A stretch of DNA of 5,629 nucleotides from a virus (Duplodnaviria > Heunggongvirae > Uroviricota > Caudoviricetes). Positions 1-2,929 of this stretch are shown piece after piece. A program made the position numbers and the translations under genes. Below the pieces are notes generated by a model. That model did no database searches. It worked only from the letters and a program-made list of their open reading frames with translations, and had not been told where the DNA came from. The DNA lies in the IMG/VR virus record IMGVR_UViG_2541047846_000004; one strand, written 5' to 3'. Each line of letters starts with the position of its first letter. Within the stretch, counting starts at the first letter, position 1.

Positions 1-1164
1 GGTCGTAACGTCACGAAGATGGATGCCTTTGGCTGTACCAGCCGGGGGCAGGCACACCGCGCCGGGCTGTGGCTGATTAAAACGGAGCTGCTGGAAACGC
101 AGACCGTGGACTTCAGCGTGGGTGCAGAAGGGCTTCGCCATGTACCGGGCGATGTCATTGAAATCTGTGATGATGACTATGCGGGGATCAGCATCGGCGG
201 GCGCGTGCTGGCGGTGAACAACCAGACGCGGACACTGACGCTCGACCGTGAAATCACGCTGCCATCCTCCGGCACCACGCTGATAAGCCTGGCTGACGGA
301 CAGGGGAATCCGGTCAGCGTGGAGGTCCAGTCCGTCACCGACGGCGTGAAGGTAAAAGTGAGCCGTGTTCCTGACGGCGTTGCAGAATACAGCGTGTGGG
401 GGCTGAAGTTGCCAACGTTGCGCCAGCGCCTGTTCCGCTGTGTGAGTATCCGTGAGAACGATGACGGCACGTATGCCATCACTGCCGTGCAGCATGTACC
501 GGAAAAAGAGGCCATCGTGGATAACGGGGCGCACTTTGACGGCGACCAGAGCGGCACGGTGAATGGTGTCACGCCGCCAGCGGTGCAGCACCTGACTGCC
601 GAAGTCACCGCAGACAGCGGGGAATATCAGGTGCTGGCGCGATGGGACACACCGAAGGTGGTGAAGGGCGTGAGCTTCCTGCTTCGCCTGACCGTGGCAG
701 CGGATGACGGCAGTGAGCGGCTGGTCAGCACGGCCCGGACGACGGAAACCACATACCGCTTCACGCAACTGGCGCTGGGAAACTACAGGCTGACAGTCCG
801 GGCGGTAAATGCGTGGGGGCAGCAGGGCGATCCGGCGTCGGTATCGTTCCGGATTGCCGCACCGGCAGCACCGTCGAGGATTGAGCTGACGCCGGGCTAT
901 TTTCAGATAACCGCCACGCCGCATCTTGCCGTTTATGACCCGACGGTACAGTTTGAGTTCTGGTTCTCGGAAAAGCGGATTACCGATATCAGGAAGGTTG
1001 AAACCACAGCACGCTATCTTGGCACGGCGCTGTACTGGATAGCCGCCAGTATCAATATCAAACCGGGCCATGATTATTATTTTTACATCCGCAGTGTGAA
1101 CACCGTTGGCAAATCGGCATTTGTGGAGGCTGTTGGCCAGCCGAGTGATGATGCATCCGGCTAG
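1..1164 (+). CDS. J: Tail-tip host-specificity protein J, 5'-partial fragment (central FN3-like region), ended prematurely by a TAG created at a tandem-duplication junction
   Basis: Frame 1 is open from base 1 (the ORF track starts at ATG 19, but the frame runs back to the window edge, so the true start is upstream). The translation (...[30 protein letters not shown]...[24 protein letters not shown]) matches my recollection of the central part of lambda J. The stop codon TAG 1162..1164 lies exactly on the junction of the 724-bp duplication. Confidence 0.85.
440..1163 (+). repeat. Tandem direct repeat, copy 1 (724 bp) inside gene J
   Basis: Bases 440..1163 align base-for-base with 1164..1887 at a constant offset of 724 and no indels. 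I found three mismatches by eye: 462 T vs 1186 C, 483 T vs 1207 C, 1011 A vs 1735 C. Homology stops on both sides (439 T vs 1163 A; 1164 G vs 1888 T). Confidence 0.9.
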
Positions 1165-2929
1165 TGTGAGTATCCGTGAGAACGACGACGGCACGTATGC
1201 CATCACCGCCGTGCAGCATGTACCGGAAAAAGAGGCCATCGTGGATAACGGGGCGCACTTTGACGGCGACCAGAGCGGCACGGTGAATGGTGTCACGCCG
1301 CCAGCGGTGCAGCACCTGACTGCCGAAGTCACCGCAGACAGCGGGGAATATCAGGTGCTGGCGCGATGGGACACACCGAAGGTGGTGAAGGGCGTGAGCT
1401 TCCTGCTTCGCCTGACCGTGGCAGCGGATGACGGCAGTGAGCGGCTGGTCAGCACGGCCCGGACGACGGAAACCACATACCGCTTCACGCAACTGGCGCT
1501 GGGAAACTACAGGCTGACAGTCCGGGCGGTAAATGCGTGGGGGCAGCAGGGCGATCCGGCGTCGGTATCGTTCCGGATTGCCGCACCGGCAGCACCGTCG
1601 AGGATTGAGCTGACGCCGGGCTATTTTCAGATAACCGCCACGCCGCATCTTGCCGTTTATGACCCGACGGTACAGTTTGAGTTCTGGTTCTCGGAAAAGC
1701 GGATTACCGATATCAGGAAGGTTGAAACCACAGCCCGCTATCTTGGCACGGCGCTGTACTGGATAGCCGCCAGTATCAATATCAAACCGGGCCATGATTA
1801 TTATTTTTACATCCGCAGTGTGAACACCGTTGGCAAATCGGCATTTGTGGAGGCTGTTGGCCAGCCGAGTGATGATGCATCCGGCTATCTGGATTTTTTC
1901 AAAGGCGAGATAGGGAAAAGCCATCTGGCTCAGGAGCTGTGGACGCAGATTGATAACGGTCAGCTTGCGCCTGACCTGGCTGAAATCAGGACGTCCATTA
2001 CGGATGTCAGCAATGAAATCACGCAGACCGTCAATAAGAAACTGGAAGACCAGAGTGCGGCAATTCAGCAGATACAGAAGGTTCAGGTTGATACAAATAA
2101 TAACCTGAACAGCATGTGGGCTGTGAAGCTGCAGCAGATGCAGGACGGACGCCTTTATATCGCGGGTATTGGTGCCGGTATTGAGAACACTCCTGACGGT
2201 ATGCAGAGTCAGGTGCTGCTGGCGGCGGACAGGATTGCGATGATTAATCCTGCGAATGGCAACACAAAGCCGATGTTTGTTGGGCAGGGCGATCAGATAT
2301 TCATGAACGAAGTGTTCCTGAAATATCTGACGGCTCCCACCATTACCAGCGGTGGCAATCCCCCAACGTTTTCACTGACACCTGATGGTCGACTTTCTGC
2401 GAAAAATGCGGATATCAGCGGTAACGTGAACGCGAACTCCGGGACGCTCAACAACGTCACGATTAATCAGAACTGTCGGATTCTGGGAAAACTGTCAGCT
2501 AACCAGATTGAAGGTGATATTGTCAAAACGGTGGGAAAAGCCTTTCCGAGAAATGGCAGTTATGCCAGCGGTACAATAACGGTCACTGTGTACGATGACC
2601 AGGCTTTTGACCGTCAGATAGTAGTCCCCCCCGTTCTGTTTCGTGGGGGTAAGCATGAAAACTTCAACAGCAACAACCAACAGTCATACTGGTATTCAAC
2701 CTGTAAGCTGCAGGTACTGAAGAACGGACAGGAAATCTTTCAGCAACCCGCGACGGATGTCAGCAGGGTATTTTCATCAGTCATTGATATGCCTGCCGGA
2801 CACGGCCATGTCACCCTGACTTTCAATGTTTCTTCATATGGTGCTAATAACTGGACGCCAACGACCAGTATCAGCGACCTTCTTGTTGTTGTGATGAAGA
2901 AATCTACAGCCGGTATCAGTATCAGTTGA
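1147..2929 (+). CDS. J: Host-specificity protein J, C-terminal fragment (duplicated FN3-like segment plus C-terminal receptor-binding region), frame-shifted relative to the upstream J fragment; possibly a pseudogene fragment
   Basis: The frame-2 ORF runs to TGA 2927..2929. The ORF track starts it at 1106, which is a TTG; the first in-frame ATGs are 1147 and 1150, just upstream of the frame-1 stop. The translation ([18 protein letters not shown]...NPANGN...[55 protein letters not shown]...FDRQIVV...VIDMPAG.G.V.LTF...AGISIS) matches my recollection of the lambda J C-terminus. Whether it is translated independently is unknown. Confidence 0.7.
1164..1887 (+). repeat. Tandem direct repeat, copy 2 (724 bp) inside gene J
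   Basis: Second copy of the same unit, directly abutting copy 1. It is read in the +1 frame relative to copy 1 and encodes the same 241-aa segment (VSIRENDDG...SDDASG). Confidence 0.9.

Follow-up and report, generated by a model that had tools for sequence, protein, structure and literature searches.

The J protein (gpJ) of lambda-like phages is the central tail fiber, or tail-tip attachment protein, and governs host specificity; the described proteins closest to the gene considered here are those of phage 21 and phage ev017. The window analyzed, a stretch of 5,629 nt, comes from Escherichia coli HVH 227 (assembly GCA_000459515.1, draft scaffold KE701157.1) and contains the tail-tip gene J and the side-tail-fiber genes of a phage-21-like prophage adjoining sitABCD. 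With its internal repeat collapsed, the window is 99.0 to 99.1% identical to the J and side-tail-fiber region of phage 21 (OL657228.1) and ev017, and its J closely resembles gpJ as annotated in more than 1,000 E. coli genomes. The Pfam domains matched (Phage-tail_3, Ig_J, Ig_J_second, Phage_Tail_Tip, and Ig_GpJ_C) are those of gpJ and place the gene in that family. The tail-module order of L, K, I, J, and side tail fiber is found at this locus as well, with Z, U, V, G, T, H, M, and L upstream of J and stf plus two small open reading frames (ORFs) downstream. Unlike gpJ, however, the gene in the window is split by an out-of-frame internal repeat of 724 nt over the Ig_J and Ig_J_second region. 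False duplications in draft assemblies, in which paralogous or overlapping contigs are placed in series, were reportedly described by Kelley and Salzberg in 2010. Such duplications are recognized by a gap between the copies and by a per-copy read depth of about half that of the flanks (PMC9516828).

On the scaffold, a gap of 3305 Ns directly precedes base 1 of the window. The contig start cuts off the 5′ part of J: its first 1278 nt fall in the gap along with K and I, and the J sequence in the window runs from J nt 1279 onward. The corresponding interval measures 2785 nt in the reference, compared with the estimated 3305. The contig on the left of the gap stops within a stretch that is 100% identical to a second prophage; the L-K-I genes are identical in both prophage types, and the HVH 227 genome has more than one copy of J and of its upstream genes. 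The contig end at the gap is, on sequence grounds, repeat-limited.

The repeat itself is a head-to-tail direct tandem repeat with a period of 724 nt, formed on the plus strand by copy A (bases 440 to 1163) and copy B (1164 to 1887), which are 99.6% identical over 724 nt, far beyond chance. The copies differ at exactly three positions, 462 T versus 1186 C, 483 T versus 1207 C, and 1011 A versus 1735 C, giving the codon pairs GAT/GAC (Asp), ACT/ACC (Thr), and GCA/GCC (Ala); all are synonymous and lie at the third position of the copy's own frame. Since the period equals 3 × 241 + 1, copy B is read in a different frame from copy A. A TAG at 1162 to 1164 spans the join and cuts J into ORFs at 19(1)-1164 and 1106/1151-2929, and an intact J frame of about 1160 amino acids (aa) is thereby missing from the window; collapsing the repeat restores an intact 1160-aa J protein. 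The N-terminal part of J (1 to 1164, plus strand, called at L002 8851-10014) contains Phage-tail_3, Ig_J, and Ig_J_second. The C-terminal J ORF (1151 to 2929, plus strand; 592 aa, EQV28425.1, G876_01236) contains Ig_J, Ig_J_second, Phage_Tail_Tip, and Ig_GpJ_C; it begins in the frameshifted end of copy A and holds copy B, the J tip, and the receptor-binding end. The junction at 1163/1164 (CCGGCTA/GTGTGAG) is blunt and free of microhomology, base 439 differing from base 1163 and base 440 from base 1888. It contains no N or gap, and 439 nt separate copy A from the nearest gap, which lies upstream. As in a tandem duplication, there is one novel head-to-tail junction and the flanks are otherwise collinear.

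Copy A, with T462-T483-A1011, is joined upstream to canonical J sequence. Copy B carries C1186-C1207-C1735, the first two of these 22 and 43 nt past the junction, and over its first 366 nt it is identical to J of the second prophage type (L083). A mosaic patch occurs in each of the two copies. It covers 642 to 1163 in copy A, where 18 sites differ from the canonical allele in the same way as in copy B. In copy B it covers 1366 to 2188, running 301 nt beyond the repeat and ending between collapsed positions 1464 and 1467, and 28 of its 28 sites are noncanonical. All 18 private patch sites within the repeat unit are common to the two copies, and so is 994-A, a variant present in only 2 of 84 J alleles. 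Copies A and B differ from each other at 3 sites, from the second J gene of the same genome at 5 and 8, and from any database allele at 12 or more. Because the private mosaic is common to both, the copies stem from one allele rather than from two independent ones.

The second lambdoid J of the source genome (L086) is intact, is recorded on a contig that equals the window's scaffold in length (973,231 nt), and encodes a protein (EQV27927.1) that was recorded only once in the protein search. It carries C462, C483, and C1011, as does copy B, while the canonical J of the resident prophage type is T-T-A, as is copy A. Sequence of this gene equals copy B exactly over 442 to 763 and 838 to 1043, and two separate tracts would be required to account for the match. 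These are features of gene conversion: a donor with the incoming alleles resides in the same genome, the changed sites are flanked by donor-identical sequence, and no donor-specific base is missing inside the tracts. Blocks of 322, 206, and 235 nt are identical between the two J genes of HVH 227, which also have one rare variant in common. Three distinct linked haplotypes are present, TTT, TCC, and CCC at 441/462/483 and AC, CC, and CT at 1011/1044. Among the IMG/VR contigs of IMG genome 2541047846, which represent predicted viral regions only, no third J locus with the T441-C462-C483 haplotype or the canonical patch sequence was found. Relative to the J pair of EC21GDE043, the two J genes appear to have reciprocally swapped 764 to 852 and 1280 to 1456. 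This pattern is suggestive and may hint at mis-phasing, but local haplotypes are few and it is not significant.

All three variant sites segregate commonly among 84 J alleles (462, C62/T22; 483, C67/T17; 1011, A35/C27/G22). The probability that three random changes would all be synonymous is 0.248^3 = 0.015, and the probability that all three would match alleles segregating at ≥5% is 0.040^3 = 6e-5. As in gene conversion, the differences fall where J is already polymorphic rather than at random positions. The three silent differences are thereby shown to be standing J polymorphisms and not new mutations. The preliminary description had reported exactly three synonymous third-codon differences between the two copies, all of which are confirmed here, and was right to doubt that they arose by drift after the duplication. 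It had also taken the pattern to indicate at least two near-identical lambdoid J genes in the source genome or population and had asked whether the T-T-A and C-C-C haplotypes match different prophages; the genome does hold a second J, which has C-C-C, and the canonical J of the resident prophage type has T-T-A. Its view that a silent-only pattern implies selectively maintained alleles is not sustained. Third-codon positions make up 70 of the 86 common polymorphic sites in the repeat unit, so the restriction to silent sites needs no special selection on the copies; three imported polymorphisms would all be at third positions with a probability of ∼0.54.

No exact match to the junction was found in IMG/VR, JGI metagenomes, GTDB representatives, or 5426 complete E. 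coli genomes, and each of the duplication-specific ORFs is represented just once in about 15 billion proteins. The same prophage region occurs without the repeat in more than 1,000 genomes, where matches span 4905 nt (5629 − 724). Outside 642 to 1163, the J sequence of the ORF at 1 to 1164 is identical to the gpJ annotated in ZJ3920, and the remaining ∼4 kb of the window shows zero differences from more than 1,000 genomes. The un-duplicated J protein of this allele, searched for in four N-terminal variants, was found in no other genome or protein record. Nor was any potential donor recovered that equals one of the copies or the mosaic patch; the best matches in complete genomes reached 97.9 to 98.8%, and no IMG/VR contig has the 764C-780A-837G or the 994A-1011A combination. 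The J alleles of the population are fine-scale mosaics throughout. Among about 200 loci, nearly all of them J bearing, four further draft contigs, belonging to three genomes, showed head-to-tail back-jump duplications of J segments, with allele-level differences between the copies and a single N marking each join. These four joins are clearly artifacts.

On balance, we favor reading the 724-nt repeat of the window as an assembly artifact, i.e., a false duplication. The mixing would then have taken place not in the cell but in the assembler, where a paralogous or overlapping J path would have been strung end to end with the resident one. The 3.3-kb scaffold gap would be a product of the multi-copy repeat, the contig starting 439 nt before the 724-nt repeat, and the J at the sitABCD-adjacent locus would really be intact and single copy. 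A literature search returned nothing usable on the assembly method of the HVH strains, which we take to be Broad Institute Illumina assemblies made with ALLPATHS-LG. The oddities are private to one assembly and clustered in a multi-copy gene, since the duplication ORFs, the collapsed J, and the second J protein are all unmatched elsewhere; like a false duplication, the repeat is confined to a single draft, falls in a multi-copy region, and has no counterpart in finished genomes. We count in favor of an artifact the presence of C-C-C in the second J together with the common-polymorphism status of the sites (P = 6e-5), as well as a junction that is blunt, homology free, and frame breaking, and the recurrence of back-jump J duplications in the four other draft contigs.

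Several observations count against an artifact. The junction lies inside a contig and has no N or gap, which sets it apart from the four clear artifacts and from the gap expected under the criterion of Ko et al. 2022 (PMC9516828). If the assembler emits only k-mers found in reads, the three linked haplotypes, one of which is tied to the junction, would represent three physical copies of the segment, and the artifact reading would then need a third J locus. The C-C pair of copy B lies within 43 nt of the junction. Further, the copies share a private mosaic and are mutually closest, as a real duplication predicts, and the gap estimate, being no smaller than expected, slightly favors a real repeat.

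A real event in the cell accordingly retains a considerable, if less than even, probability. It would consist of an out-of-frame tandem duplication of 724 bp in the sit-adjacent J, produced by illegitimate, homology-free joining that turned J into a pseudogene, followed by gene conversion from a paralogous J, with two short tracts (C-C within 442 to 763 and C within 838 to 1043) entering copy B; or it would be one complex template-switching repair. The 18 patch sites and the rare 994-A shared by the copies are expected from common descent, and a C-C-C donor identical to copy B over both tracts resides in the same genome. The recombinant boundary at 1456/1464/1467 is held together within 11 nt, which is unlikely to be a phasing error and shows exchange between J types in the lineage, and fine-scale mosaicism of J alleles across the population is consistent with such exchange. 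However, a real duplication would pack several independent rare events into 2 kb of one strain, next to ∼4 kb that does not differ from more than 1,000 genomes, and no relative carries either the duplication or the allele. Junctions without microhomology are unusual among E. coli duplications, the conversion tracts must have missed the donor differences at 441, 764 to 837, and 1044, and the site, 439 nt from a gap in a multi-copy gene, is where short-read assemblies fail. In the single-repair version, which we consider rather unlikely, a break in J would have been copied from paralogous J genes with out-of-register template switching, generating the real repeat and the mosaic patch together. 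If this were true, the locus would represent a "hybrid" tandem duplication covering the Ig-like domain region, with alleles of different prophages in its two copies, and would offer a snapshot of how tail-tip domain arrays could grow via recombination between prophages.

The remaining explanations fare much worse. It is very improbable that two prophages exchanged J sequence in a one-step unequal homologous crossover, with copies A and B taken from different alleles: there are two J genes in one genome, the left part of copy A is of the canonical type, and copy B opens with sequence of the second prophage type, but positions 1163 and 440 are nonhomologous and without microhomology, a crossover would join different flanks whereas both flanks here belong to the same prophage, and the same private 642-to-1010 mosaic is found in both copies. 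The junction analysis largely refutes it. Duplication followed by point-mutation drift, with purifying selection sparing only silent changes, is more improbable still; it agrees with the synonymous nature of all three differences, but these all match commonly segregating alleles (P = 6e-5), the duplication broke the gene and left no basis for selection on both copies, and the flanks show zero divergence. Drift is refuted at a P of about 1e-4. Programmed diversification from the template and variable repeats of a diversity-generating retroelement is scarcely credible and was rejected even though two near-identical repeats lie in a receptor-binding tail protein gene, because the differences (T>C, T>C, and A>C on one strand) are all silent and not adenine specific, the repeat does not cover the receptor-binding end, and no reverse transcriptase gene was found in the window or in the 10 kb flanking it at each end.

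The preliminary interpretation therefore holds in part. Its rejection of drift, its second J gene, and its option of a chimeric assembly stand, the last as a leading explanation. Its two independently maintained alleles do not agree with copies that share 18 private patch sites and 994-A and are nearest to each other; its unequal recombination between related prophages gives way to a junction that joins nonhomologous positions with zero microhomology; and its argument for selection from silent sites is lost.

The repeat carries little biological weight, its greatest consequence being the loss of the tail-tip gene from a single resident prophage. If real, it would be a modest case in which exchange between prophages led to a structural change in a host-range gene. 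The locus also calls for caution, as short-read drafts of multi-copy prophage tail genes yield private mosaic alleles and apparent duplications, and split "hypothetical" and "DUF1983" proteins from such drafts (EQV28425.1 and WP_206730510.1) enter protein databases. In addition, silent-only differences can mimic selection while merely reflecting polymorphism imported from a paralogue.

Compared with known systems, the window resembles spontaneous bacterial tandem duplications formed by illegitimate recombination in its head-to-tail arrangement, its single end-to-start junction, and the inactivation of the gene. Fresh tandem duplications are identical and usually have a few bases of microhomology, whereas this repeat has three differences and none. 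The locus is also like recombination or gene conversion between co-resident lambdoid prophages, with two J genes, identical blocks, and differences that all fall at polymorphic sites; conversion alone, however, makes no tandem repeat, and a separate illegitimate event, or else an artifact, is required to explain the blunt junction. Draft-assembly false duplications provide a further parallel, in that a multi-copy gene lies by a gap, the copies differ only where paralogues differ, and the arrangement is private to one draft, with four analogous J back-jump duplications in other draft contigs; in those four, and under the published criteria (PMC9516828), a gap separates the copies, while the copies in the window abut without an N. 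Whether it took place in the assembler or in the cell, the mixing of J copies is of an ordinary kind and involves no new mechanism.

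Counted with a single copy of its repeated segment (the collapsed window), the DNA shares 99.0 to 99.1% identity with the J/side-tail-fibre regions of phages 21 and ev017 and is close to the sitABCD-adjacent prophage of more than 1,000 complete E. coli genomes (e.g., CFT073, Nissle 1917, ATCC 25922, S88, and ZJ3920). Matches in all of these prophages span 4,905 nt (5,629 minus 724), so these genomes have the region once, as an intact gpJ gene of 3,483 nt. The gene in the window is an ordinary gpJ-family gene. An exact-protein search with the downstream ORF returned one match, EQV28425.1 ("hypothetical protein G876_01236") of E. 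coli HVH 227 (4-2277670), which RefSeq re-annotates as WP_206730510.1 ("DUF1983 domain-containing protein"); each forms a cluster of one in a collection of ∼15 billion proteins. The window is located at bases 141483 to 147111 of scaffold KE701157.1 (973,231 nt; assembly GCA_000459515.1), and its base 1 comes directly after a run of 3,305 Ns (positions 5546 to 8850 of L002, the scaffold locus containing the window). This gap takes out the 3′ portion of L, the complete K and I genes, and the first 1,278 nt of J; the corresponding distance in ZJ3920 is 2,785 nt. Where the contig left of the gap stops, its sequence matches the second prophage of HVH 227 at 100% identity, and the two prophage types are likewise 100% identical across L-K-I, which attributes the gap to a repeat. 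IS3-family insertions break J in several complete E. coli genomes, and the one in E. coli M15 (NZ_CP185789.1; locus positions 1998 to 3306) lies near J nt 1226 to 1230, ∼50 nt from the J position where the HVH 227 contig begins.

Within the window, a 724-nt unit occurs twice in direct tandem orientation (copy A, 440 to 1163; copy B, 1164 to 1887). Base-by-base comparison confirmed the duplication and the three silent differences of the preliminary description and found no others: 462 T/1186 C (GAT/GAC), 483 T/1207 C (ACT/ACC), and 1011 A/1735 C (GCA/GCC), each at the third codon base in that copy's own frame. The period equals 3 × 241 + 1 nt, so the second copy is read in another frame; the join creates a TAG at 1162 to 1164 at which the first J ORF ends (1164), and a second ORF, from 1106 or 1151 to 2929, covers the downstream part of J. 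The join (...CATCCGGCTA followed directly by GTGTGAGTATCC...) is blunt with zero microhomology, as T439 before copy A differs from A1163, the last base of the unit, and T1888 after copy B differs from G440, its first base. Homologous unequal exchange, one of the two routes suggested earlier, is therefore very unlikely to have produced the repeat. A query of 80 nt with the junction at its centre reached at least 80% coverage in 0 of 5,426 complete E. coli genomes, and the exact junction was not found in GTDB (one genome per species), IMG/VR, or JGI metagenome contigs. Four versions of the collapsed, 1,160-aa protein, representing the un-duplicated allele, were absent from the protein collection, and the best J match to either copy in complete genomes reached at most 98.3% identity.

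Downstream of J, positions 2948 to 2977 form a strong intrinsic-terminator-like hairpin (GGGCGCC AGAAAT GGCGCC, then a T run), and the phage 21 record annotates a terminator in the corresponding part. The side-tail-fibre ORF (2982 to 5048; 5264 to 7324 in the ZJ3920 prophage) is a single unbroken frame of 686 to 688 aa, with an alanine-rich, low-complexity stretch of repetitive appearance (AAS/AAK/AAE motifs) at 3340 to 3720, in the N-terminal third of the protein. In ZJ3920, RefSeq divides the same DNA into two features, a "phage head spike fiber domain-containing protein" and, as a partial pseudogene, a "prophage tail fiber N-terminal domain"; the split is one of annotation, not a sequence difference.

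The preliminary description attributed the silent mismatches to two J alleles in the source genome or population, and a second J gene is indeed present in the genome. A 46-mer of copy B joining the rare 994-A with 1011-C occurs in one IMG/VR contig only (L086), and the copy A version occurs in none. The J and tail fibre proteins of L086 (EQV27927.1 and EQV27925.1) are each on record for a single contig of 973,231 nt, exactly as long as KE701157.1, and belong to the accession series of EQV28425.1. From this agreement in length and series we take L086 to be a second lambdoid prophage of HVH 227, most likely carried by the window's own scaffold. Its J gene is intact (1,159 aa), has the copy B haplotype (C462, C483, and C1011), and matches copy B without difference over 442 to 763 and 838 to 1043, differing inside the unit at 441, 764, 780, 837, and 1044 only. 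Each haplotype thus belongs to a different prophage: T-T-A, found in copy A, is the canonical allele (J of the phage-21-like, sit-adjacent prophage), and C-C-C is that of the L086 gene.

Outside one patch, the collapsed window shows zero differences from the canonical ZJ3920 prophage over ∼4 kb; the patch (collapsed positions 642 to 1464) differs at 28 sites. Copies A and B agree at each of the 18 patch sites that fall within the unit, including 994-A (2/84 alleles) and the combination 764C-780A-837G (2/84 alleles), which as an 82-mer is absent from IMG/VR. A greedy mosaic cover and a four-way comparison with the J pair of EC21GDE043, a complete genome holding both prophage types, resolved the mosaic structure (numbered in the collapsed window). 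Through copy A, the sequence is canonical at 1 to 641, second-prophage type at 642 to 805, of the type of another compared locus (L004) at 806 to 1010, and canonical-compatible at 1011 to 1163. Copy B matches the second-prophage type exactly at 440 to 805, rare T441-C462-C483 haplotype (3/84) included, and is L004 type at 806 to 1010; after C1011-C1044, second-prophage type continues to 1464, with canonical sequence from 1467. The copies are alike in their interiors and differ near the edges only, where one copy is resident-like and the other paralogue-like. Judged from these shared sites, the copies are not two independent alleles; of the two-allele explanation, the second J with its matching haplotype stands and the independence of the copies does not. 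Relative to the EC21GDE043 pair, there is also an apparent swap between the HVH 227 J genes at collapsed 764 to 852 and 1280 to 1456 (window 764 to 852, 1488 to 1576, and 2004 to 2180), the resident J having second-prophage alleles and the second J canonical ones. Reciprocal exchange, mis-phasing by the assembler, or chance agreement among a few local haplotypes could each explain this pattern.

On balance, we consider the repeat somewhat more likely than not to be an assembly artefact. It starts 439 nt from the gap, which is a repeat-limited contig end, and the upstream part of the gene is repeated exactly between prophages; the join is blunt, homology-free, and frame-breaking; and the tandem repeat, the mosaic allele, and the once-seen second J allele are all private to one draft. 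This location and the privacy of every oddity make the prior for an artefact strong. False head-to-tail joins in draft tail genes are demonstrably a general problem: among ∼200 compared loci, nearly all J-bearing, such back-jumps occur in four further draft contigs (three IMG genomes), mostly inside J but in one contig also in the L-K region, with copies 93 to 100% identical, and a single N at every back-jump marks them as scaffolding artefacts. Chains of two to four head-to-tail tail-gene copies, mostly within J, were seen in L129, L140, L159, L152, and L175 (IMG genomes 2700989365, 2700989368, and 2693429679), at irregular spacings of 530 to 2,671 nt and 93 to 100% identity.

The main but less likely alternative is a real duplication that later acquired two short conversion tracts, or else one complex template-switch repair event. 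Unlike the four other draft cases, the window has no N at its join, nor the gap between copies that is the published hallmark of false duplication (PMC9516828). The assembly holds three read-linkable haplotypes (441/462/483 as TTT, TCC, and CCC; 1011/1044 as AC, CC, and CT), and the junction lies 22 and 43 nt away from the C-C of copy B. A graph assembler restricted to observed k-mers would have had to see three physical copies, which would imply either that the duplication is real or that HVH 227 has a third J locus and the assembly an unexplained false join. E. coli has ∼3 copies of the unit per genome on average (14,065 places in 4,552 genomes; median, 2), which makes a third locus plausible from the outset; none from HVH 227 was found among IMG/VR contigs. 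The recombinant boundary (1456/1464/1467) spans just 11 nt, which indicates that a true exchange between J types occurred in the HVH 227 lineage. The junction-level evidence thus favours a real event, and location and privacy favour an artefact. If the duplication is real, J would be in two pieces, an N-terminal one stopping after the first Ig_J/Ig_J_second region and a C-terminal one beginning at a weak internal start and carrying the second Ig_J/Ig_J_second copy, the tip, and the receptor-binding end; this would be ordinary prophage decay.

The silent pattern itself is expected of imported standing variation. Aligning 80 J alleles from IMG/VR with 4 from complete genomes (84 in all) showed polymorphism at 172 of the unit's 724 positions; at 86 of these the minor-allele frequency is at least 5%, and 70 of the 86 are third codon positions. 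All three mismatch sites belong to these common polymorphisms (462, C62/T22; 483, C67/T17; 1011, A35/C27/G22), and three draws from them would all be third-position with a probability of ∼0.54 [(70/86)^3]. Selective maintenance of both copies, as proposed earlier, is therefore not needed. De novo drift after duplication is rejected, as a random substitution hits an allele at ≥5% with a probability of 0.040, and three such hits with 6e-5.

A resemblance to diversity-generating (DGR-like) systems fails the defining tests: no reverse transcriptase is present in the window or within 10 kb to either side, and the differences are not adenine-specific and are all silent. It is well known that lambdoid prophages sharing a host become mosaic and undergo gene conversion, that tandem duplications arise spontaneously, and that draft assemblies contain false duplications; neither the repeat nor its mismatches require a new mechanism.
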